From IMG/VR virus record IMGVR_UViG_3300045988_150439: a stretch of 64,000 nucleotides of DNA; one strand, given 5' to 3'. Each line of letters starts with the position of its first letter. Position 1 is the stretch's first letter. The DNA is from a virus. Its lineage: Duplodnaviria > Heunggongvirae > Uroviricota > Caudoviricetes. The notes under the pieces were generated by a model that saw only the letters and a program-made list of their open reading frames with translations, did no database searches and was not told the origin of the DNA. Shown piece after piece: positions 11,593 through 63,224 of this stretch. The position numbers and the translations under genes were made by a program.

Positions 11593-12804
11593 TCAAAAAA
11601 GTTTTATAAATTCATAATTCTGGTCAATTAAGGATTCAATACACACCATGCAAAAATCTACATCGTTAAAATCAGGTGTGTAATATTCATCCTCATAACA
11701 TTCATTTAGACCTTCAATCAATTTTTCTTTAAAAACTCCCCACGTTTCAATATGAACCATTTCCATATAAGGCGCATGTGTATGTACTTGCAATACATCC
11801 CAGGTGTCTATAACCTCGATCCGCGGCTTGCAATTAATTTTTTCTAAATATGCCCTCCCAGAATTGTAAATTTTCGACATTGATGCCCCAAAACCTGATG
11901 GTTGGTAATGAGTGTAAATGTCATAAATTTTTTGTCCTATTCTAGGGAGTTGAGAAGCATTGGATATTTGTGGCGAATGAAAGTATCGCTCTATGGAAGA
12001 AAACGCAGAAACATTAACTAGAGTAATCGTATATGGTGCTAAAGTTCTCTCGTTCAAATTTCTACATAAAATAGCAAACCCATGGCTATTAGTCTTTTCA
12101 CCGTCTGAGGACATTTTTGCCATGCTGGCTTTAATAACATTCAATTTCGAATGTAAACGAGAAGTGGAAGTCGGTTGATTATACATTTCATCATCATACA
12201 AACATATATGAAACCCGCCAAGATGACGAAATGAGAACTTGAGTGCTTCTTCCGCAATAACTAATTTATTAATATCTAAAGGAGTAAGTGATACGTTACC
12301 TTGTAAATCATAGCAAGGTTCTAAACATAGAAAGTTTTTCTTCTGCCACACAATCATATTAAAAATAAAGTGTCTAACCAAAGGTGGCCAGTCAGGTGAT
12401 ATAAGTACATTGGTAATATCTCCATCAGACAAGTATGACAAGTAACTTTTTAGTTCCGCAGCATATGCCACTAGCTCAGTTCCAGCTTCCCTTGTTGGTG
12501 TTGAAAAATTTTTTAACTCAATAAGAACTAAGGATTCATTCTCTGTTGAATAAGCAACGACATCAGGTCTTAATATCTCAGATTTTGTTGCTGAGATATT
12601 TTCATCATCTGTCATTAAATGTAACAATGTTATATTCTTTAAACAAAACTGATAACTCTCCTTAATTTTTTTCTCTTCGGGTCTTTTCGGATTAAATTCA
12701 TTTAATTTATCAATATTGATGATTGAATTATATAATCCATCTTGATCAGATAATTTGTCAATTATCCAATTTTGCATTTCCTTTTCGCTTAAAAATATTG
12801 ACAC
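11593..12804 (-). CDS. PD-(D/E)xK nuclease-like protein, putative (second gene of an AT-rich two-gene module)
   Basis: 403 aa; N-terminal region carries a PD-x14-ExK arrangement (RPDVVAYSTENESLVLIELK); GTG start with GGAG RBS; strongly AT-rich; 26 bp downstream of its partner. Confidence 0.4.
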   Translation of the reverse strand: MSIFLSEKEMQNWIIDKLSDQDGLYNSIINIDKLNEFNPKRPEEKKIKESYQFCLKNITLLHLMTDDENISATKSEILRPDVVAYSTENESLVLIELKNFSTPTREAGTELVAYAAELKSYLSYLSDGDITNVLISPDWPPLVRHFIFNMIVWQKKNFLCLEPCYDLQGNVSLTPLDINKLVIAEEALKFSFRHLGGFHICLYDDEMYNQPTSTSRLHSKLNVIKASMAKMSSDGEKTNSHGFAILCRNLNERTLAPYTITLVNVSAFSSIERYFHSPQISNASQLPRIGQKIYDIYTHYQPSGFGASMSKIYNSGRAYLEKINCKPRIEVIDTWDVLQVHTHAPYMEMVHIETWGVFKEKLIEGLNECYEDEYYTPDFNDVDFCMVCIESLIDQNYEFIKLF

Positions 12805-12830
12805 TAATTAGGCTCCCGTTAAACCAAAAA

Positions 12831-13652
12831 TTAAAAATCTTGCTTTACTTTATCCATAGTCAGAATTTTGCTAATAATTGAAGATTCAAATCCATCTAAA
12901 CCTGAGAGAAAGTTAATTAGCTTTTGGATATGTTGTTCTTTAGGTATAAGTATATATTTTATATCATTGAACTCAAAATCAATGCCAAACTTTGAAAATT
13001 TTGAGCTAATTTTTGCTTTGTCATCAGAAGTGATAACACGCTCCAAACTCAGACTAGGCCATAAATCACCAATAAAAGGAGCTGGCACATAACGCCACTC
13101 TTTCTCGTCTGCATATATATAATTCTCTATTGTTTTATTATCTTTTCGCTCTAGCTTGCCTCTGTAATTTTTCATATAACGCAGTAAATTATATAGATCA
13201 GAATATTCTGCTTTCAATTTCTCAAACTCTATTCTGTTTTTGGTATCTAAATTTCCTCTAGCCTTCCAAAGCGGCACCAACTTTTTTTTAATAAGTCGAA
13301 TTCTGGCATTGTATTTAGAAAATATTTCACTGCTCTTATTCATATATAGAACTGGGTGTAGACCTTTCTTTTCCGCCCAAGACTTAGTTAGCCCAAGACC
13401 GAATTCCCCATATTTTCCGCTATGATCTCTGATTTGTGATAGTTTTATGTCACAAAACGATACCATTGGTACTGCAAACCTCCTGCGTCCCCCGACTCCT
13501 CTTATTTCCTCGCGAGCAAGAAATGGTTTAAAATATTTCTCAGCCAATATGCTATAGAAAGCATCTTCGTTTTTTGTAAAATGAAACAACGTGGTTGGAT
13601 GAAGACTATAAACAGATTCAACATTCGCATCAGGATTTTCAAGGATAGTCAT
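12831..13652 (-). CDS. Abi-like hypothetical protein (first gene of the AT-rich two-gene module)
   Basis: 273 aa from the ATG at 13652 (RBS aaggtg); AT-rich, Lys-rich; gene sizes and order resemble two-gene abortive-infection modules such as AbiGi/AbiGii, but this is an unverified recollection. Confidence 0.35.
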   Translation of the reverse strand: MTILENPDANVESVYSLHPTTLFHFTKNEDAFYSILAEKYFKPFLAREEIRGVGGRRRFAVPMVSFCDIKLSQIRDHSGKYGEFGLGLTKSWAEKKGLHPVLYMNKSSEIFSKYNARIRLIKKKLVPLWKARGNLDTKNRIEFEKLKAEYSDLYNLLRYMKNYRGKLERKDNKTIENYIYADEKEWRYVPAPFIGDLWPSLSLERVITSDDKAKISSKFSKFGIDFEFNDIKYILIPKEQHIQKLINFLSGLDGFESSIISKILTMDKVKQDF

Positions 13653-13801
13653 TTTACACCTTGTGGAAAGCCAGTTTAGTTCTGTAAATAGTATCACACG
13701 ACAGGCGGCTATTCTTCTATCAATAAAGGATAGGTAAGCACTTACTTTTTACGCGCGTTAATTGTATAGTTCTTTCGGATACTCACTTGAAAGGACTCAA
13801 T

Positions 13802-21151: not shown

Positions 21152-24100
21152 ATGAAGGCACTGATGGTTCGAACTGACTTCTCACTTGGGGAGTCGGCTC
21201 TAAAAGCAGAAAACGCGGTGAAGATTGCCAGAGAAGCTGGCTACACCGCTGTAATTTCAGCAGATAGCATGAATATTGCAAGTGTTATTCCACTACAACG
21301 TGCCGCTGGTGACGACATGGCGGTTATTTGTGGTGTGAAACTAAACATTGTTGATGATCCCACATACGAGCACCGGGCTAAACTTGCTAAAGAATCTATG
21401 AGATGTATGGAATCATTAGAGCGGGGACGCAACTACTCGTTTACCGCTCTAATTAAAAATGAGCAAGGATATCGCGACATCTGCGAACTAATGACGGCGG
21501 CCAACACACGAGAACAGTTCTACTTTGTACCGCGTCTCTCGCTCGAACAGTTGGTTTCTACATATGCCAAAGGCAACATCATCCTGCTTACTTCCGACAT
21601 CGGTAGCGTGTTCCAACGCAACGATTTTGCAAAAATCATAAGCACACTGATTACAGCGGGTGGAAAAGACAACTTCTATAGTGTGGTTTATCCGCACCCT
21701 ACCCCATTCTACGACCAGATTAACGTCCGGGCGATGAAAGTCGCCAGCGCACTGAAAATAGAGCCAGTAGCGTTTTATCCCGCTTATTACGAATCGATCG
21801 ACGATGCAGACATTAAAGACATTGCGCACATGGTTACGAACAACATCAAAATCGACCAGCCGCATCGTCTGCGTATCCCCCACCAGCGAGATAACGCCAT
21901 CAATGGTCGTCGCCATCTCCTTGAGGCGCTTAAAGCCTTCTCCGTTCGCATGGATGTGCCGGTAACAGCTGCAATGGCCTCAACAACGCAGGACTCCATT
22001 ATCGATGCCTGCACATGGCGCTGGCATGAATTGCCACCAGCACTGCCCAAGATGGCAGACGACGAACCTGCAACGCTGATGAAACTGGCTGTTGAAGGGC
22101 TGCGTAAACGTCTTACCACAAAAGAGTTTGGATACACACCACCTGCTTCTGAGAACAGGGTTTATGTTGAGCGGCTAAAGTACGAAATGGACACGCTGAC
22201 TCGCCTGGGATTCTGTGGTTACTTCCTGATGGTACGCGATCTGATGAATCATAGTCGTGAAACTGGCATTCCCGTTGGGCCTGGTCGTGGTTCCTCTGCC
22301 GGTTCTCTGGTGGCGTGGTGCATAGGCATAACCAACGTCGACCCAATCCGTCACGGTCTTCTGTTTGAGCGTTTCATCAACCCTGAGCGTCTCGACTTGC
22401 CGGATGCGGACTTGGACTTCAGCCAGGCACGTCGCCATGAGGTGATCGAGTATCTGAATGAACGCTACGGCGAAGATTACGTTGCAGGCATTCCGAACTT
22501 CACCTATCTGGGCGCGGCATCTGCGCTGCGTGACACTGCACGTATTTACGGTGTCGATGCTGCGGATATGGCGGTATCCAAAGAGTTCAAGAATATGGAG
22601 GACGACAGCCTGTCTCTGGAAGAGCTGCGCGAGCAACTGGCCAGCCTGGACAAATACGCCACGAAAAACCCGGAAGCGTTCAAAGCGGCGTGTAAGCTGC
22701 AAAGCCTGATGCGTGGTTTTGGTCGTCACGCTGCGGGGATGATCGTCGCTGGCGTTCCATTAGTAGAGCGCACGCCCGTCGAGCTGCGTGGCAATGCTCG
22801 ATGTATTGCGTTCGATAAACGTTACTGCGAGGCGATGGGGCTGATTAAGTTGGACGTTCTCGGTCTGGCAACACTCGATCTTCTGGATAGCGCGAAACGC
22901 TACATCAAAGAGAGCACCGGTGAAGACATCAATCTCGACGCTATCCCACTGGACGATCGCAAGGTTCTGGATGGGTTCGCTGCAGGGTACACGCAGGGCG
23001 TATTCCAGCTGGAGTCCGGCCCCATGCGTAAGCTGCTTAAAGATCTGGGCGGTGGCATCGAGCCAATGAGTTTCAAAACCGTTGTCGCAACTACCGCCCT
23101 CTTCCGACCGGGACCGATTCAATCCGGCATGTTGGATGACTATGTTTCCGTTGCGAAAGGATTTATGACGCCTACATCACTACATCCTGTCTTGGATGAA
23201 CTGACCTCTGAAACAAATGGAGTGATTCTCTATCAGGAACAAACGATGAACGCAACAAGGCTTCTTGCTGGTTTCACAATGGCTGAGGCGGATGGTGTGC
23301 GTTCAGCAATCGGTAAGAAGAACATGGAAAAGATGAGGAGCATGGGTGAGAAATTTGTCATTCAGGCTCAAGCTGGGTGGATCGACGTAGAGCTTGAAAA
23401 TGGCGCAATACAACGGATTCATCGCGCAGAACATTTTAAATGCGAGGACGGTACTCTGAGGACAGTTGAAGAGGCGTTGGAGCATGGAGTGAAGCTGCCA
23501 ATGCCAGTTGTGCGCGTTACAACGTCACATCCGGGTCTGTCTGAGACGAAGGCAAAAGAGATATGGACTGCATTTGAGAAAAACGGAGCCTATCAGTTCA
23601 ATAAATCACACTCCGTTGCTTATTCTTTAATCAGTTATCAGTCTATGTGGCTAAAGACGCACTACCCTGCTGAGTTCTTCGCAGCTGCGCTCACCATTCT
23701 GGGCGAGGATAAGCATCAGGGGCTGGTGAAGGATGCGCTGACCTATGGCATTCGCGTATTGCCACCAGACGTTAATGTGTCATCTAACCGAATTGAGATC
23801 CGCACACTCGAAGACGGCAGTCAGGCACTGTATGCGCCATTCTCTGCTGTGAAAGGCTGTTCTGAAAATGGTTGTCAGGCAATTATGCGTGCGCGTGAGA
23901 AAGTTGGTGGCAAATTCGAGTCAGTGGCACAATTCGATGAAGCGGTCGAGAAGCGTGCATGTAACAGTCGTGTACGCGAGTCGCTTCATAAAGTAGGGGC
24001 TTTTGCGTCAATTGAGCCAGGCAGTCTGCCAGCAACTGATCCTGAACGACTGCGCGACCAGGCTGAGCTGATGGGCAATCTCATCATTGACGCTGTTAAA

Positions 24101-24670
24101 GCATCACGTCCGTTCGAAATGAATCCTAAGCGTTCTGCCGAAATCAACGTACTCATGACACGTATGGCGGTTGAAATGGGCTTGGGTGAGGAGTTGATAC
24201 GCCCGACTATTGGTATTAAACCCAAAATCATGATCATTCTGGACAATGCGAACGGCAATGACGCTCGTACCGGCTACTTCATGGAGAACGGATACGACGA
24301 CTTTAAGGCAAAACTACTGACAGTTGGAGATCTGCGCATGGGCGATCTTTATGTCACGGGTGTTTGTAAGAAGGTTAAGGACAAAGAGAAAGACTATACC
24401 AAAGACGAGATAGGCCAGTTCACAGACTTTATGCGGGAAGAAATTAATCTTGTACGACCAACCTACATTTTGACGTGTGGTAGTCGTTCAACCGCACTAT
24501 TTAACAATAAGAGTAAACCATCAGATCTGATTGGTCGTAAGGAGTACTTCCCAGAGCTTGATGCAACCGTCTTCTACGGATTTAACCCGAATATCCTGTA
24601 CTTCCGACCGGAAGAAGGAGAGCGACTGGAGGCCATTCTGGCTGATATCGCGGAGACAATAAATAAGTAA
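21152..24670 (+). CDS. dnaE: DNA polymerase III alpha subunit (DnaE-like replicative polymerase)
   Basis: 1172 aa; conserved Pol III alpha core segments (GCSENGCQAI..., FNKSHSVAYSLISYQSMWLKTHYPAEFFAA); the N-terminal PHP-like region lacks the usual His cluster. Confidence 0.7.
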   Translation: MKALMVRTDFSLGESALKAENAVKIAREAGYTAVISADSMNIASVIPLQRAAGDDMAVICGVKLNIVDDPTYEHRAKLAKESMRCMESLERGRNYSFTALIKNEQGYRDICELMTAANTREQFYFVPRLSLEQLVSTYAKGNIILLTSDIGSVFQRNDFAKIISTLITAGGKDNFYSVVYPHPTPFYDQINVRAMKVASALKIEPVAFYPAYYESIDDADIKDIAHMVTNNIKIDQPHRLRIPHQRDNAINGRRHLLEALKAFSVRMDVPVTAAMASTTQDSIIDACTWRWHELPPALPKMADDEPATLMKLAVEGLRKRLTTKEFGYTPPASENRVYVERLKYEMDTLTRLGFCGYFLMVRDLMNHSRETGIPVGPGRGSSAGSLVAWCIGITNVDPIRHGLLFERFINPERLDLPDADLDFSQARRHEVIEYLNERYGEDYVAGIPNFTYLGAASALRDTARIYGVDAADMAVSKEFKNMEDDSLSLEELREQLASLDKYATKNPEAFKAACKLQSLMRGFGRHAAGMIVAGVPLVERTPVELRGNARCIAFDKRYCEAMGLIKLDVLGLATLDLLDSAKRYIKESTGEDINLDAIPLDDRKVLDGFAAGYTQGVFQLESGPMRKLLKDLGGGIEPMSFKTVVATTALFRPGPIQSGMLDDYVSVAKGFMTPTSLHPVLDELTSETNGVILYQEQTMNATRLLAGFTMAEADGVRSAIGKKNMEKMRSMGEKFVIQAQAGWIDVELENGAIQRIHRAEHFKCEDGTLRTVEEALEHGVKLPMPVVRVTTSHPGLSETKAKEIWTAFEKNGAYQFNKSHSVAYSLISYQSMWLKTHYPAEFFAAALTILGEDKHQGLVKDALTYGIRVLPPDVNVSSNRIEIRTLEDGSQALYAPFSAVKGCSENGCQAIMRAREKVGGKFESVAQFDEAVEKRACNSRVRESLHKVGAFASIEPGSLPATDPERLRDQAELMGNLIIDAVKASRPFEMNPKRSAEINVLMTRMAVEMGLGEELIRPTIGIKPKIMIILDNANGNDARTGYFMENGYDDFKAKLLTVGDLRMGDLYVTGVCKKVKDKEKDYTKDEIGQFTDFMREEINLVRPTYILTCGSRSTALFNNKSKPSDLIGRKEYFPELDATVFYGFNPNILYFRPEEGERLEAILADIAETINK

Positions 24671-24675
24671 TAAAG

Positions 24676-24700
24676 AAAACCCGCCTGTTGGCGGGTTTAT
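24676..24700 (+). terminator. Rho-independent terminator after the polymerase gene
   Basis: acccgcc-tgtt-ggcgggt hairpin followed by a T-rich tract. Confidence 0.7.
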
Positions 24701-24973
24701 AAAGAATTATGGCGCTTGTTGAGGAAGTCACTCCTCTTACGCACTTTGTTTTGCCATGCCGGCAGTTAGCTTCTGCCTTTGACTATTCATGCGGCAACCC
24801 CGCATTTCGCCACAATGGGCAATTCACTTTTATGGAATAAACTGGCCGTTGTGTCGATTTAATTAGCATGGCCTTACCATGCTAATTTATTCAACTTGTA
24901 AAATCCTACAAATCTATCCACTCAGGCTTACACCGTCTTCGTTATTGTAGAAATGAGGATCATCAGCGTTGAA

Positions 24974-25189
24974 TCAGCTTAGAGCAACGACATTTGCTGC
25001 TGCTGGGCCTTTAGCCCCATTCTCGATAGAGAATTCGACCTGCTGGCCTTCTTCCAAAGTGCGGAAATTATTACTCTGAATTGCCGAAAAATGTACAAAA
25101 ACATCTTTACTGCCATCAGCAGGAGAAATAAAGCCAAAGCCTTTATCAGAGTTAAACCATTTTACTAAACCAGTCATTTTATTAGACAT
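24974..25189 (-). CDS. CspA-family cold-shock protein (CspB/CspG/CspI-like)
   Basis: [38 protein letters not shown]... matches E. coli cold-shock proteins almost residue for residue; start taken at the internal ATG (25189) with RBS; long 5' leader upstream. Confidence 0.85.
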
Positions 25190-25518
25190 AGATACTACCT
25201 TCTTAATTTTGTGAGCCACATAGTGCGGCGAGAATTTGATCTGTATAGATTGGGACTTACTTAGGCACTTAAGGAGGAGACTCACGAAGAAGGGAAATCA
25301 GAAGATAACACTGAACTGAGACTGCTTTACTAAAACTGCTTACATAAGGTCTGTCTTGCAAACCAACGATGCTATTAACGCATACCCCTTCTTTTCATGC
25401 AACCTTTATTTTTCAAAGATAACTAATTTTTGTCACCATTGGTTTAGTAAACGTTAACGAACCAGACGATGCCAGACACCTTTACAGAGAACAGATGCCC
25501 GCCAATTGGCGGGCATCA

Positions 25519-26082
25519 TTATGCGCATTTCGCAATATCTTTGCGGCGTTTAATCAGTTTCTCCGCAATTTGCTCTATTTCGTTGAAATCTTTCGAGACG
25601 CTGTTTCGAAGCGCCAGATTCCATTTACTCAAAGTTCGGGCATTTTGGACAATTTGATCGCCCTCTTTAAGTCGTCCGTTATTCATGAGCCATTCAGCCA
25701 CATCAGCCCAATCCCAGAGAGGAGACTGGCCTTTTATGCGTTGTACAGGGCAAGGGAAGTCGCCGCTTCCGCGCTTACCGTCTTTGAGCAACGCCACTGC
25801 CTGGCGAGACAGGTCTGTCAGTTCCGCGATATCGCTTAAGCCCACAAGAGCCGAGTCGACGGATTCAACAATTGCACCGATACCGGCTGATTCAATATTG
25901 TCGACCGCAGATGCGATAGCTGCATCAAGTGATTGTGCTTCGCGGTCAAATTCTACATAGACGGAGTTTCCATATGCGCAAATTAGCGCATCGTCACAGC
26001 CGTTTTGGTACAGCGCGTCTTCCAGTCCTTCCGTCTCATACGATACGCCTGAGAGCGTCAGAGTGAAGTTATAAAGCGCCAT
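25519..26082 (-). CDS. hypothetical protein with probable C-terminal HTH
   Basis: 187 aa from the ATG at 26082 (aaggaaa RBS); LSDIAELTDLSRQAVALL resembles an HTH; downstream partner of the small Cys/His gene. Confidence 0.4.
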   Translation of the reverse strand: MALYNFTLTLSGVSYETEGLEDALYQNGCDDALICAYGNSVYVEFDREAQSLDAAIASAVDNIESAGIGAIVESVDSALVGLSDIAELTDLSRQAVALLKDGKRGSGDFPCPVQRIKGQSPLWDWADVAEWLMNNGRLKEGDQIVQNARTLSKWNLALRNSVSKDFNEIEQIAEKLIKRRKDIAKCA

Positions 26083-26142
26083 AGTTTTCCTTTGAAGATA
26101 GTTGGACAGTTTCTGCAAAAGGCGGCTAATGCCGCCTTGAAA

Positions 26143-26367
26143 TCATTTACAACGATCAACCATTCGTTTGATCTGTTTGGCATGGTTTTCGGGATTACCC
26201 GGAGTCGACCATACGCTCATTTGGTGAGTTTTGTGTTCACCTTCTGGATTACCGCATCGCAGTCTGCAAAAACAATGTGCAGCACCACCAGCTGCTACCC
26301 AGATCCAGCCTTTACTTAATGCATAGTCAATGGCTGCTTGAATATGCTTATTCGGATGTTGCTTCAT
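26143..26367 (-). CDS. small Cys/His-containing protein (74 aa), possible toxin-like or zinc-binding
   Basis: ggagg RBS; AHCFCRLRCGNPEGEH cluster; first gene of a two-gene minus-strand unit. Confidence 0.4.
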   Translation of the reverse strand: MKQHPNKHIQAAIDYALSKGWIWVAAGGAAHCFCRLRCGNPEGEHKTHQMSVWSTPGNPENHAKQIKRMVDRCK

Positions 26368-26621
26368 TCGCCTCCGATAATAGTATTCTATTCACAGTGT
26401 TGACATCTGTCAACGGCGACTGAATTTCATCCGTTCATGCCACACCCCCATCCATCTCATGTATGTGACCTAAAGATGGTCAGCACAGCTTACCAAAATA
26501 AGACAACTAATTATCTTCGGTGATCTCAATATTTTCCCCTGAACAAAGTTGACATGACGCCATAAACCCGTTCTCTGTTTGATATAATTGATACAGATTT
26601 TATAAGTAGGAACCTATTAGA

Positions 26622-27053
26622 GTGAACACTGATATTTTTTCTAAAATCATGGCCGATCTGGAGTTCGACCGCGACAACCTTGAGGAAGTATGGCGTAAAC
26701 AGCCACGGCTTTTAATGGAGTATGGGTCAAAACTAGCGCAGGCAGATCGAGATGTCGCAGAGGCAAAACTTAACCTTGAAGCTGTTGAAGCAAAGCTATA
26801 CGACACAGAGCGTAAGAACTTGAGTATGAACGGCATTAAGTTCAACGAGTCTGTACTGGACGCTAAGGTTAAAACAAACCCACAGTATCTGTCTAAACGG
26901 CAGAAGTTGGATGAAGCACGGCACATAGCAGACATATACAAACATGCTGTCGCCGCCTTTTCGCATCGCCGAGACATGATCGTTCAGGCGTCAAAGATGG
27001 CCATCGTTGAATTAGAGCGATTAGGCTCTGAACGCTTTATTACTCCCCGTTGA
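26622..27053 (+). CDS. hypothetical protein
   Basis: 143 aa, GTG start (alternative ATG at 26649); helical and charged. Confidence 0.4.
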   Translation: MNTDIFSKIMADLEFDRDNLEEVWRKQPRLLMEYGSKLAQADRDVAEAKLNLEAVEAKLYDTERKNLSMNGIKFNESVLDAKVKTNPQYLSKRQKLDEARHIADIYKHAVAAFSHRRDMIVQASKMAIVELERLGSERFITPR

Positions 27054-29472: not shown

Positions 29473-31812
29473 ATGGCAAAAGGAAAATCCGCACTGGCAC
29501 TTGCTCTGAAAAAGAAAATCGGTAGCAACGACGAAATTCAGAAAGTAACTCATTGGATTGACACAGGCTTTCCTCCGTTAAACAAAGCTATTTCCGGTCG
29601 TTACGATGGCGGTTTCCCATGTGGTCGTATCGTAGAAGTATTCGGGCCACCAAGCGCGGGGAAATGTGTTACCGCAGACACCATGCTGCTGACGGAGCGT
29701 GGAATGGTAACAGTGAAAGAGTTGTTTGAGATTGAAGGGTACAAAGCGACATGCACTACTCGCGATGTAGAGCATAACGTTGGACTCATCAATGAAAATG
29801 GCGTGATAGAGAAGACCTCACACCTGACATGGAACAACCGTCGCAAATTCAAGCGTATTAAGCTGGCATCAGGCGGTTATATCGAGGCTACGTTCCGTCA
29901 CCCAATCCGTGTGGTTGACGACTTAGGTAATGTCGTCTGGCGACATGCTGAAAAAATCAGTGTAGGCGACACGATTCCTTCAATGGTTGGCACACATCAA
30001 TTCGGCGATCAGCACCTGGATGCCAATATCGCAAAACTGATGGGCTATTTAATTGCTGACGGATACGTGGCCTCTGAAAATTCAGTGAATTTTTCTAACA
30101 CAGATCCTTTCATCAAGGATGAGTACTACCGCCTCATTTCGCTGGTATCAGACAAGATGCCAGTTACGAGAAAACATAACGGCTCGGAAGACCATGTGCT
30201 GTTTAGCAAAGAGGTGCGTTCGCTGCTTTTTAAAGAATATGGTCTGGAGTATGAGAAAGCTGCTGGCAAGCAGGTTCCGTTGAGTGTGCGTCGCGCCAAT
30301 AGCGAGGCTCAAATTGCATTCCTTCGCGGCTACTTTGAGCTGGAATGCCACGTCAATGATGGTCGCTGCATTGAGGTTGTGAGCGCGAGTGGGCTGCTGC
30401 TACAGCAAATTCGCCTCATGCTCCTGAATCTGGGGATTACGTCAACTATCTCTGAAAAACACGTCGCGGGTTATGAAAATACATATTACCGGCTGTCATT
30501 CAGTGGCTCTAATTACGACCTTTTTCTGTCAACGATTGGTTTCGAATCTCCGGCACGTTTATCAGTGGCAACCAAACGGGACATTGGTTTTGACCGCACT
30601 TACTCAGGCTATGTTCCGCACATCAGCGGCTTAGTGAAATCACTCTACGAGTCGCTCACCAAGACCACCCGTGAAGACTACGCTCTGGTAGACCACGTTA
30701 TTGGCCGCGGCGATCGTGTCGGAATAGACAAACTGCGAGAAATCTATGTCTCCTTCATTGGCAGAAAGAATCGTTTTAACGAGCATCTGTTTGCACAACT
30801 GGCAGCGGTAATTGGCTCTAACTTGTTCTACGACGAAGTCGTGGCTATTGAGGAAGGTGAAGCACCAACGTTCGACGTAGCGATGCCGGAAACACACTCT
30901 TTCTGGTCTAACGGGATTATCAGCCACAACACATTCCTTGCAACAGCAGCGATGATCTCCGCACAGAAACAAGATGGTCTGGCGGTATTCCTCGATCATG
31001 AGAACAGTTTTGACGTTGGCCTGGCTGTAGCCAATGGCCTGAACGCAGATGAGGATGACGGTCAGTGGGTATACAAGCAGCCAGATACCTTCGAAGACTC
31101 TGTAGAGTTGATCGGCACAATACTTAAATTGGTTCGTGATGAAGAGCTTATCCCCGAATCAGCACCTATCTGTATCGTGGCTGACTCTCTTGCGTCTATG
31201 GTTCCGAACTCCAAAGCCGAGAAGTTCGAAAAGATGGCTGAAGGCACTGCCAAAGACAAAGATCAGCTAAACATGAACGACAATACGGCACTGGCTCGTG
31301 CGACGAGTGCGAACTTCCCTACTCTGGCTTTGTGGGCACGCAAATACAACGCCTGCATCATCTTCTTGAATCAGGTTCGCACAAAAATCGGTGTAATGTT
31401 TGGCGACCCTACTACGTCGCCAGGTGGAGATTCACCGAAGTTCTACGCTTCTGTACGTATCCGTCTTGGTGCATCGGTGATGAAGGATGGTAAAGAGAAG
31501 ATCGGCCAGGACGTAGGCGCAGAATGCATCAAAAACAAAGTTGCACCACCGTATGGCAAATGCACCTGGAAATTCTACTTCGATCCTACTCGTGGCCTCG
31601 ACGTTATCGAATCGCTCGTCGAGTACATGCTGGAAGAAGGATACCTGCCAAAGAACGCCAGCGGGCGAGTTGAAATTGGTGACAAGAAATACACCAAATC
31701 GCAGATCGTCGAGATGTATCGGGAGAAGCCATTAGCAGAAATCATTGCTGCGTTACAGACGATAGATGACCGACGAGAGAAGACATCACCAACAGAAGAA
31801 CTAGAAGATTAA
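29473..31812 (+). CDS. recA: RecA-family recombinase interrupted by an intein
   Basis: N-extein ends GRIVEVFGPPSAGK; C-extein begins TFLATAAMISAQKQ and carries ICIVADSLASM, IIFLNQVRTKIGVMFGDPTTSPGG and KFYASVRIRL, all RecA signatures. Confidence 0.8.
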   Translation: MAKGKSALALALKKKIGSNDEIQKVTHWIDTGFPPLNKAISGRYDGGFPCGRIVEVFGPPSAGKCVTADTMLLTERGMVTVKELFEIEGYKATCTTRDVEHNVGLINENGVIEKTSHLTWNNRRKFKRIKLASGGYIEATFRHPIRVVDDLGNVVWRHAEKISVGDTIPSMVGTHQFGDQHLDANIAKLMGYLIADGYVASENSVNFSNTDPFIKDEYYRLISLVSDKMPVTRKHNGSEDHVLFSKEVRSLLFKEYGLEYEKAAGKQVPLSVRRANSEAQIAFLRGYFELECHVNDGRCIEVVSASGLLLQQIRLMLLNLGITSTISEKHVAGYENTYYRLSFSGSNYDLFLSTIGFESPARLSVATKRDIGFDRTYSGYVPHISGLVKSLYESLTKTTREDYALVDHVIGRGDRVGIDKLREIYVSFIGRKNRFNEHLFAQLAAVIGSNLFYDEVVAIEEGEAPTFDVAMPETHSFWSNGIISHNTFLATAAMISAQKQDGLAVFLDHENSFDVGLAVANGLNADEDDGQWVYKQPDTFEDSVELIGTILKLVRDEELIPESAPICIVADSLASMVPNSKAEKFEKMAEGTAKDKDQLNMNDNTALARATSANFPTLALWARKYNACIIFLNQVRTKIGVMFGDPTTSPGGDSPKFYASVRIRLGASVMKDGKEKIGQDVGAECIKNKVAPPYGKCTWKFYFDPTRGLDVIESLVEYMLEEGYLPKNASGRVEIGDKKYTKSQIVEMYREKPLAEIIAALQTIDDRREKTSPTEELED
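29665..30930 (+). mobile_element. intein with LAGLIDADG homing-endonuclease domain, inserted in the RecA P-loop
   Basis: Begins with Cys (CVTADTMLL), ends SHN followed by Thr; two LAGLIDADG-type motifs (LMGYLIADGYV and FLRGYFELECHV); removing the 422 codons restores GPPSAGKT. Confidence 0.75.
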
Positions 31813-35039: not shown

Positions 35040-36095
35040 CTATTTGCGAGTCTTTGCCTTGCGCAACTCTTCGAGAAGCGCCAGTTCTTCTTTACTCAAC
35101 ATGACCATTTTGCCTTCTTTTTCGTCAGGCACAACGTCGATAATGTCATCTTGATTCTCATCTGGGAGGCTATATTCCGTCTCATCATTATCGATTTTTG
35201 TTGATATTTGTGCCTGGCGTAACTTTGGCCGCCTATAGTGGATGACGAAGTAGACCGAGTTTCCGCGCTTAACTTCCGTGTAATCGAGATATCCTATCTC
35301 TCGCAGCTGTTCCATAGCCTTTCTTACCGTCGCATTCTGAGTAATAGTGCGACTTGTCAGATTAAGTCTGGCGCGTAAACGGGCTAGTGATATTGGTGCC
35401 GGATCAGGCGGCAAACTTTCAATAAAAGTATAAAGCGCCTGAGCGGATTCTTTTCTTGAGAGTTCGTTTATAGCCCGGAGTTGCAGAAGAACCTTTTTGT
35501 CGAACTGGTAGAGTTCGAAAATCTTGGGATCTGCTTTCAGTTCGACCGTATCGTGCTTGACACTATATTTTGCCGTTTGCACAAGATGCGTTACGTAAAA
35601 CTCATCAGAGCCTTTGCTACGGAACGAGATGGTATTTGTGGCAATACGGCTTAGCGAACTGTCCAGGCGTTTGCGTAACTTCGCTGATGACCTGGCGGTC
35701 GGAATGCCACACAGCCTTACAAACTCAACGAACGGCAGCGTGACAGTATCGCCAACGACCTTGTGTTTGGCAAACGCGTGGATTATTCCCACCCACGTTT
35801 TAAAGTCGTTATCCATATCAAGCCGAAGGCCAGAGATCCTTATGTCTTCGTACCCTTCGGCTTTTGCCAGAGACAGCTGTTTGAGTTCAGCAGAGGCATC
35901 CATAGAGACCATTTGCCCCTTTCTTCCTCTGGATGTCGATTTCAGCGTCGGAACGAAGAGGCCCAGACGCATCAAAGCAACAGGCTGAACAGTGTTATTA
36001 GTGTTAGGAACCAACGTAACAACTTCGCCTGTCTTTTTATCTGTTTCTGAAAATGCTTCAACGATCGCTATGTTTTTATTGCCGTTTTCGCTCAT
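35040..36095 (-). CDS. repA: RepA-like iteron-binding replication initiator
   Basis: 351 aa minus-strand gene bracketed on both sides by iteron arrays with matching core sequence; assignment is by context, not by a recognised protein motif. Confidence 0.55.
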
Positions 36096-62123: not shown

Positions 62124-63224
62124 TCACACTGCGCGGAATGCGATCTCTCCAGGTATTACTTCGCCTTGCCAATACATTTGGGCAGCAACGCGATCTGCGA
62201 GGTCACGATAAATAGCCGTAAATTCGCTATCTGGACGACTAATAACGGTTGGTGTTCCGTTATCCAGATCTTCACGAAGTGAGATATGAAGTGGCATTTG
62301 GCCTAACAACAGCGTGTTGTATTTCTCGGCCAGTTTCTGTGCGCCACCGGTGCCAAAAATTGGCTCGTGATGACCGCAGTTACTGCAAATATGCACACTC
62401 ATGTTTTCGACGATACCCAGTACCGGCACTTCGACTTTTTCGAACATCACAATGCCTTTCTTCGCATCGATCAGCGCGATGTCTTGCGGCGTAGTTACCA
62501 CAACCGCACCAGTTACAGGAATGTTCTGCGCCAGCGTCAACTGAATATCACCAGTGCCCGGCGGCATATCGAGAACGAGATAGTCCAGATCAGGCCACAG
62601 TGTTTCTTGCAACATTTGCATCAACGCCTTGCTCGCCATAGGGCCACGCCACACCATCGCGTTGTCGTCAGTGACCAGATAACCAATTGAATTGGTTGCC
62701 AGGCCATGAGACATAATAGGTGCCATGTGAGTACCGTCTGGTGAGGTTGGACGTTGGTTTTCCGCGCCCAGCATGGTTGGAATTGATGGCCCGTAGATAT
62801 CGGCATCAAGAATGCCAACTTTCGCACCTTCAGCGGCTAACGCCAGCGCCAGGTTTACCGCCGTGGAAGATTTACCTACCCCACCCTTGCCTGAGCTGAC
62901 GGCGATAATGTTCTTAACGCCATTAATGCCTGGTTGGTTTTTAACGCGCTTCAGCGTGGCAATGTTGTGAGACAGCTTCCAGTCGATAGCCTTTGCACCA
63001 GTGATACGGAGCAGATCACCACTACATTGCTCTTTCAGGTCTTCAAAAGGCTTATTCCACACGAAAGGCATGATTAGTTCGACATGCAGTGTGTCATCCA
63101 TCAACGCAACATGGTGTAACGCTTTAAGCGTAGTCAGGTTGTGTTTCAGGGTTGGGTGCTGAAAAGTAGCCAGCGTACCGGCTACCATTGCTCTCAGGGC
63201 ATCCGGCGATTTGGACTCGCTCAT
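62124..63224 (-). CDS. apbC: iron-sulfur cluster carrier ATPase ApbC/Mrp (chromosomal)
   Basis: 366 aa; Walker A SGKGGVGKS and CxxC (CSNCGH) motifs; divergent from metG, as in enterobacterial chromosomes. Confidence 0.9.
   Translation of the reverse strand: MSESKSPDALRAMVAGTLATFQHPTLKHNLTTLKALHHVALMDDTLHVELIMPFVWNKPFEDLKEQCSGDLLRITGAKAIDWKLSHNIATLKRVKNQPGINGVKNIIAVSSGKGGVGKSSTAVNLALALAAEGAKVGILDADIYGPSIPTMLGAENQRPTSPDGTHMAPIMSHGLATNSIGYLVTDDNAMVWRGPMASKALMQMLQETLWPDLDYLVLDMPPGTGDIQLTLAQNIPVTGAVVVTTPQDIALIDAKKGIVMFEKVEVPVLGIVENMSVHICSNCGHHEPIFGTGGAQKLAEKYNTLLLGQMPLHISLREDLDNGTPTVISRPDSEFTAIYRDLADRVAAQMYWQGEVIPGEIAFRAV

Follow-up and report, generated by a model that had tools for sequence, protein, structure and literature searches.

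Background

HicB antitoxins are known in classes with a DNA-binding domain, without one, and fused (PMC10865869), a range mirrored by the architectures of a small gene pair, here called A-B, which is encoded on the minus strand of a virus of the class Caudoviricetes (IMG/VR record IMGVR_UViG_3300045988_150439). The stretch of this record analyzed here, 64,000 nt in length, is referred to as the window. A first-pass annotation, made from the letters of the sequence, described A-B and a neighboring cold-shock gene (csp) as an island of three minus-strand genes, and likened the pair to HicA/HicB-type toxin–antitoxin (TA) modules. A-B is already catalogued as PDC-M06, one of 145 candidate systems defined by their embedding in BREX, DISARM, or type I restriction–modification loci (Payne et al., bioRxiv 10.1101/2024.01.29.577857), and one phage record gives it the loose label HicA/HicB. 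In the lysogen of Escherichia coli LF82, A is expressed 30-fold and B 14-fold above the prophage background, and the two genes are listed as the morons HicA and HicB (PMC9928086).

The window is an SSU5-like phage-plasmid. Over 24700-26700, it matches Escherichia phage Cyrano (OV696614), the phage-plasmid of the SSU5 type in E. coli LF82, at 99.7% identity, and 63 plasmids of about 100-120 kb each at 99% identity or more. Phage-plasmids of the SSU5 type are common in clinical Enterobacteriaceae, while their upkeep in the cell and their effects on the host are poorly known. Literature searches on PDC-M06, on SSU5 with HicA, and on SSU5 toxin–antitoxin systems retrieved no functional study, and no published function, fold, or mechanism was found for PDC-M06.

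Results and discussion

Conservation and mobility of the A-B pair

With moderate confidence, A-B can be regarded as an autoregulated toxin–antitoxin-like or abortive-infection module. Both of its genes are genuine, as is csp; chance open reading frames (ORFs) were rejected as an explanation because the family is conserved across phyla. Searches with A retrieved 699 cluster representatives (E ≤ 1e-3) from a library of 1.84 billion proteins, and relatives of A were confirmed in 303 stretches of a species-genome collection; B yielded 273 homologues. Long N-terminal extensions of some A representatives were considered as possible fusions and rejected, as they look like mis-called starts in high-GC genomes. 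In PADLOC, both proteins match the components of PDC-M06 (A, PDLC04383, 1.2e-19; B, PDLC04388, 1.3e-32).

Eighty loci were examined, from Enterobacterales, Pasteurellaceae, Acinetobacter, Alteromonadales, Neisseriaceae, Planctomycetota, Balneolales, Verrucomicrobiota, Chitinophagales, and other groups. The TA-like layout noticed at first pass, with the gene for the smaller protein placed first, is borne out, and the order and orientation of the two genes recur in nearly all of this set: a B homologue is located directly 3' of A on the same strand in 78 of the 80 loci, frequently with a 4-nt overlap. One of the two exceptions is a contig end, and the other is an in-frame A-B fusion. The latter, from a Rhodothermales metagenome-assembled genome (L076, 4936-5490), joins A and the start of B in a single 184-aa frame through a 6-residue linker; it may be natural or an assembly error. 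A conserved third gene was sought beside the loci with a short B, and none was found.

A-B shows the generic hallmark of type II TA systems, i.e., adjacent, co-oriented small genes that are co-inherited in genomes and mobile elements of unrelated kinds. A-B sits in one and the same slot of the backbone in SSU5, Cyrano, and Enterobacter/Klebsiella phage-plasmids, the SSU5 copies being 57% (A) and 68% (B) identical. It is also found in an HP1/P2-like prophage of Histophilus, where it adjoins Phd-YoeB, inside the transfer region of an integrative and conjugative element in Yersiniaceae, beside an integrase and IS110 in Pseudoalteromonas, and as a two-gene islet in the Providencia chromosome. E. 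coli carries A-B on plasmids only (110 of 5,426 complete genomes), and among 50,697 phage records the pair is present in Cyrano and SSU5 only.

Decay of the pair is one-sided. A is frameshifted or truncated next to an intact B in five loci, and the converse was never seen. Three of these lesions, each a different one, come from as many Providencia isolates, in one of which A has H31Y as well; the other two belong to metagenome bins.

Transcription signals and the operator

The island consists of two transcription units, since csp has a leader and a putative promoter of its own, and A-B a promoter and a terminator (Table 1). The first-pass proposal of one operon, in which a 74-aa Cys/His-containing protein is followed by a 187-aa protein, agrees with the promoter shared by the two genes and the terminator after B.

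A palindrome at the A-B promoter accompanies the winged helix-turn-helix (HTH) found in many forms of B (see below). Scored at 10 or more matches out of 12 to GTTGAC-N4-GTCAAC, it precedes A by 39-77 nt in 57 of the 63 loci whose B carries the HTH, the remaining six having GTTTAC-type variants, and is found in none of the 17 loci whose B is devoid of it; by chance, such a match would turn up in about 0.5% of scanning windows. No second site with at least 10 of 12 matches was found in the 64 kb analyzed here. Strong sequence evidence thus points to the winged helix of B as the part that would bind the palindrome and compete with RNA polymerase for the -35 box.

The spacer between A and B contains a GC-rich hairpin, possibly an attenuator or a stabilizer. 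In clades outside Enterobacterales, the two genes instead overlap by the 4 nt ATGA.

Domain organization of protein B

The predicted structure of B (pLDDT 86.5) comprises an N-terminal β-α-β-β-α-β domain (residues 1-77), a winged HTH (about 80-142), and two long helices (143-187). The HTH-like segment reported at first pass thus corresponds to a winged HTH of the AlpA/excisionase type in the model, and this middle domain matches the winged helices of AlpA, Xis, and TerS. B also matches phrog_2620, labelled 'excisionase and transcriptional regulator', while the Pfam model of AlpA leaves it unmatched at E ≤ 1. An excisionase role was considered and rejected on two grounds: the replicon is non-integrating, and the HTH is absent from some forms of B. 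The mechanically called ORF of B runs to a TTG at 26118, whereas its homologues begin at the ATG.

The three parts of B differ in their distribution. Residues 1-77 are the only part present invariably across the loci, and this domain is strongly acidic (pI 4.05; family median, 4.1). The HTH is absent in Planctomycetota, Verrucomicrobiota, Latescibacterota, and Cardiobacteriaceae, and the C-terminal helices are mostly limited to Enterobacterales and a few other lineages.

Protein A and its relation to HicA

Protein A is basic (pI 9.5; family median, 9.4) and matches phrog_5923, a family with no function assigned in PHROGs. When both proteins were scanned against Pfam and NCBIfam, only noise was returned (RuBisCO_small, CagE). 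The AlphaFold2 model of A (pLDDT 86.9) has the order α1-β1-β2-β3-α2, with a short helix in the β2-β3 loop. Conserved positions among 86 relatives include H4 (86), K7, W21, H31 (82), C38 (84), position 48 with Cys or His (83), T55, P56 (86), H62 (69), and C73 (84). Reasoning from the topology of the model, H4, K7, H31, T55-P56, and H62 may constitute a candidate active site at one end of the sheet. At the other end, C38, C/H48, and C73 probably staple the fold by means of a metal site or a disulfide.

An hhalign comparison with a narrow, E. coli-type HicA alignment gave 64% probability, out of register and over 19 columns (N-terminus of A against the β3-α2 junction of HicA), and was not counted as homology. 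As this narrow profile missed other HicA proteins of the PDB, a broader one was rebuilt from PDB sequences. Against the combined PDB and E. coli-type alignment, A aligned in register but weakly (E 1.6e-3, probability 16%), with H31 falling on the GSH histidine of HicA. H31 is located just before β2, and G-x-S-x precedes it in many relatives.

Proposed mechanism and alternative explanations

The pair would be a self-contained, mobile, and autoregulated module of the toxin–antidote type, unrelated to csp. In favor of this reading are the synteny and mobility of the pair, the modular make-up of B, the operator, the in-register placement of H31, the opposite charges of A and the N-terminal domain of B, the one-sided decay of A, the PDC-M06 matches, and the expression of the pair as a moron in LF82. 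A would be small and basic and have a HicA-like fold in which H31 takes the place of the catalytic histidine of HicA, and we infer that it is a toxin that cleaves or binds RNA. B would neutralize A by direct binding through its acidic, ferredoxin-like N-terminal domain, the one part of B that is never missing beside A. In loci whose B has the HTH, a dimer would sit on GTTGAC-N4-GTCAAC over the -35 box and repress the operon. According to the LF82 data from the literature, lysogens of the phage-plasmid express the module, and its role would most likely be plasmid retention (post-segregational killing), abortive-infection defense, or both.

Several observations weigh against this mechanism. The sequence match to HicA/HicB, called weak at first pass, is indeed so: neither A nor any of 86 diverse relatives matched HicA_toxin (PF07927) at E ≤ 1, an NCBIfam search gave no HicA match for A, and PDB sequence-profile searches with the alignments of A and B returned chance matches only (lectins, vaginolysin), with no HicA among them. 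A Foldseek search of the PDB with the model of A likewise found nothing significant and no HicA. The spacer hairpin and the approximately 2:1 ratio of A to B transcript in LF82 run counter to the excess of antitoxin on which a TA pair depends, and counterpart hairpins, variable in sequence with the stem kept, are present in most Enterobacterales loci. Toxin-first systems solve the problem of antitoxin excess by other means. The GCDD and FDRE motifs in the N-terminal domain of B are conserved across phyla, which is unusual for an antitoxin, and the domain could have a function of its own. The association of the palindrome with the HTH (Fisher's exact p 1e-12) was computed on loci counted irrespective of phylogeny, and the two decayed A genes from metagenome bins are possible assembly errors. 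Finally, literature searches found no experiment on toxicity or A-B binding for any member of the family.

Several of the same observations would suit a purely regulatory pair with no toxin, in which B is a self-repressing AlpA-type factor that perhaps acts on other targets too, and A a small metal-binding co-factor or anti-repressor that tunes it. The middle domain of B with its AlpA, Xis, and TerS matches and its phrog_2620 label, the PGAP calls of B as an HTH or AlpA-family regulator, and the conserved operator all fit such a pair; so does the weak HicA signal of A, and an internal hairpin with more A than B transcript suits a modulator made in excess. We consider this main rival rather unlikely. 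A and the N-terminal domain of B persist in Planctomycetota, Verrucomicrobiota, Latescibacterota, and Cardiobacteriaceae with neither HTH nor operator, and therefore the core function of the pair would lie in protein-protein contact rather than in the control of DNA. The operator-like site stands alone in the window, and the pseudogenization of A only, the pairing of a basic with an acidic protein, and the hopping among unrelated mobile elements beside other TA pairs are typical of addiction modules.

That A-B is a bona fide, divergent member of the type II HicA/HicB family, as the Cyrano annotation has it, is improbable. The layout is like that of HicAB, and the fold of the putative toxin probably is too; A nevertheless fails to match HicA sequence models, and B departs in both fold and DNA-binding domain. 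Judged by its model, B is not HicB, contrary to the likeness suggested at first pass: its N-terminal fold is ferredoxin-like (β-α-β-β-α-β) instead of a partial RNase H, and its DNA-binding domain is of the AlpA/excisionase type, with no C-terminal Xre-HTH or ribbon-helix-helix (RHH) domain and no N-terminal Phd/YefM domain.

A single functional unit of csp, A, and B, e.g., a cold-responsive TA switch acquired as one island, is very improbable: the three genes are adjacent and co-oriented, jointly break the plus-strand backbone, and would combine two activities on RNA (those of CspA and of HicA-type toxins), but a terminator follows B, csp is equipped with a separate leader and a putative cspA-type promoter, SSU5 and Enterobacter/Klebsiella phage-plasmids retain the A-B slot with other genes in place of csp, a csp neighbor was not retrieved as a conserved feature in any of the 80 loci, and related csp cassettes stand alone in lambdoid prophages.

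The cold-shock unit

The csp product is an ordinary member of the CspA family, as the first-pass annotation had recognized. It has about 70 residues and a full-length cold-shock domain (Pfam CSD 1.4e-33, 115 bits; cut-off, 27), and it exceeds the curated NCBIfam thresholds of both CspG (146.6 bits, 144 required) and CspA (140.2 bits, 130 required). RefSeq plasmids name the gene cspG. The long leader proposed for it is confirmed by the Rfam match (Table 1), which spans model positions 1-428, i.e., a 5' untranslated region (UTR) of about 178 nt and the coding region, and identifies the long, structured 5' UTR as the mRNA thermosensor of the CspA family. A putative promoter, TTGCAT and (G)TTAATA with a spacer of 17-18 nt, was read from the sequence itself, a further 6-7 nt upstream of where the Rfam model begins; a consensus promoter scan did not pick it up. 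csp would thus act as a standard cold-shock RNA chaperone gene under a cspA-type promoter and an mRNA thermosensor leader.

The grouping of the three genes into one island makes too much of their connection. csp is separate, variable cargo: its slot contains other genes in SSU5 and in the Enterobacter/Klebsiella relatives, and a single three-gene island was rejected on account of this variability. Related cassettes were found by themselves in lambdoid prophages. The Cyrano GenBank record OV696614 (L001) has no coding sequence for csp, and for this reason the LF82 moron expression table contains no value for it. The window gene shares the full-length cold-shock domain, the CspG equivalog score, the Rfam thermoregulator, and the putative cspA-like promoter with the CspA and CspG genes of E. 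coli and with the prophage genes cspB and cspI (lambdoid prophage Tritos); it differs from them only by its location on an SSU5-type phage-plasmid and by the missing Cyrano annotation. It is a cargo gene of known biology and matters little here.

Two hairpins in the gap between the convergent dnaE and csp genes are probably bidirectional terminators; the one closer to csp was also scored as a spurious mir-2187 microRNA match in Rfam.

Genomic setting

The three minus-strand genes (csp, B, and A) are placed between the dnaE-like gene and a 143-aa uvsY-like gene, within a plus-strand block of replication and recombination genes that continues with a gp32-like single-stranded DNA-binding protein, an exonuclease, and an intein-containing RecA. 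They interrupt a long plus-strand run at the positions given at first pass, all other large ORFs between 14283 and 33457 being on the plus strand. The GC content of the island (0.445) is the same as that of the backbone.

Table 1 Genes and signals of the minus-strand island and its flank, in window coordinates
Feature	Position	Strand	Description
dnaE-like polymerase gene	21152..24670	+	Flank of the minus-strand genes
Second terminator-like hairpin, dnaE-csp gap	24677-24698		GC-containing, perfect
Perfect 13-bp hairpin, dnaE-csp gap	24859..24892		Candidate bidirectional terminator
cspA mRNA thermoregulator (Rfam RF01766)	24949..25367	-	183.9 bits (gathering score, 78), E 4.1e-50
csp	24974..25189	-	71 aa, CspA/CspG-type cold-shock protein
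Putative cspA-like promoter	25373..25402	-	-35 TTGCAT, 25402..25397; -10 GTTAAT/TTAATA, 25379..25373
Intrinsic-terminator-like hairpin just after B	25494..25517	-	10-bp stem, 8 GC pairs, T-rich tail
B	25519..26082	-	187 aa, start MALYNF; putative antitoxin and autorepressor
GC-rich hairpin, 60-nt A-B spacer	26119..26138	-	AAGGCGGC-ATTA-GCCGCCTT then UUUU; minimum free energy -16.1 kcal/mol, z -2.3
A	26143..26367	-	74 aa, Cys- and His-rich; putative toxin
A-B promoter	26385..26413	-	TTGACA-17-TAGAAT; strong, sigma-70-like, 11/12 consensus matches
Operator-like palindrome	26399..26414		GTTGACA-GA-TGTCAAC; perfect, overlaps the -35 hexamer of the A-B promoter

Homing elements occur in the surrounding block. 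The dnaE gene of the window is a single ORF of 1172 aa, while in Enterobacter/Klebsiella relatives it is split by an HNH/NUMOD4 homing-endonuclease gene (L083, 13244-13939 and 12053-13222). The RecA gene (29473-31812, plus strand) harbors an intein whose LAGLIDADG homing-endonuclease domain was assigned by way of the homologous gene of L083; the recombinase of SSU5 at this position, 358 aa long, is uninterrupted.

Plasmid-maintenance and defense-type genes are found elsewhere in the window. A Rep3-type replication initiator (35040-36095) and a ParA/Mrp-like ATPase (62124-63224) are plasmid-maintenance genes and share the minus strand with the island. A minus-strand pair of low GC content (0.31-0.39) at 11593-13697 is probably an acquired abortive-infection system: the 288-aa product of 12831..13697 is AbiGi (Pfam PF10899, 5e-25; PADLOC AbiGi, 6.5e-47), and the adjoining 403-aa product of 11593..12804, for which no match was obtained, may be an AbiGii-like partner. 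A KAP-family P-loop NTPase domain (Pfam, 1.6e-5) is encoded by a 567-aa plus-strand ORF at 1287-2990, also of low GC content (0.31-0.34). This ORF matches PDC-S49, a single-gene candidate of PADLOC (6.9e-22), and resembles further defense-type cargo.

Significance

A-B is expressed in the lysogen, conserved at one backbone position from SSU5 to Cyrano, and represented by relatives in at least 303 species genomes, yet has neither a Pfam family nor an experimental study. If A is a toxin, the pair would extend the HicA theme by a new antitoxin architecture, give the candidate PDC-M06 a concrete function, and offer GTTGAC-N4-GTCAAC and its AlpA-type winged helix as a simple pair of operator and repressor. 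Only tentatively, A-B might be the founding example of an unrecognized, phylum-spanning TA or abortive-infection family, in which a metal- or disulfide-stapled RNase of the HicA fold is neutralized by an acidic, ferredoxin-like domain in place of HicB. In that case, A-B would represent a fifteenth genetic context for HicA-type toxins. It would also belong to the conserved backbone of SSU5-type phage-plasmids, those of Salmonella Typhi, Shigella, and Yersinia pestis relatives among them, and would there enforce retention of the plasmid or exclude competing phages.

Comparison with known systems

The regulatory logic proposed for A-B is that of MqsRA and HigBA, which have the toxin gene first and an antitoxin with a separate neutralizing domain and an HTH that represses through a promoter palindrome. 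MqsA contains structural zinc, whereas in A-B the Cys/His cluster is located in the putative toxin; no relation of A-B in fold or sequence to MqsR/MqsA or HigB/HigA was detected. AlpA/Xis winged-helix regulators (e.g., the GIsul2 excisionase, PDB ID: 8c3t_A) resemble the middle domain of B and, unlike B, have no additional conserved N-terminal domain and no constant A partner; besides, the phage-plasmid carrying B does not integrate.

HicAB (E. coli K-12, PDB ID: 6hpb; Burkholderia pseudomallei, 6g26; Streptococcus pneumoniae, 5yrz; Y. pestis HicA3B3, 4p78) is a toxin-first bicistronic operon, as A-B would be. Both systems have a partner protein with an N-terminal domain that neutralizes the toxin (putatively so in B) and an optional C-terminal DNA-binding domain, a palindromic operator (operator-like in A-B) at the promoter, and variants that are fused or devoid of the DNA-binding domain. 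A differs from HicA in lacking a match to its sequence models, and in its extra β2-β3 loop, its C38-C/H48-C73 cluster, and its N-terminal H4-P-N-K. In contrast to HicB, the putative neutralizing domain of B is predicted to be ferredoxin-like rather than a partial RNase H, and its winged helix resembles the AlpA/MerR type rather than Xre-HTH, RHH, or Phd. None of the 14 published HicA contexts has a partner like B. PDC-M06 is the same gene pair as A-B; whereas it was defined by its embedding in defense systems, the pair in the window is located in the replication and recombination block of a phage-plasmid.

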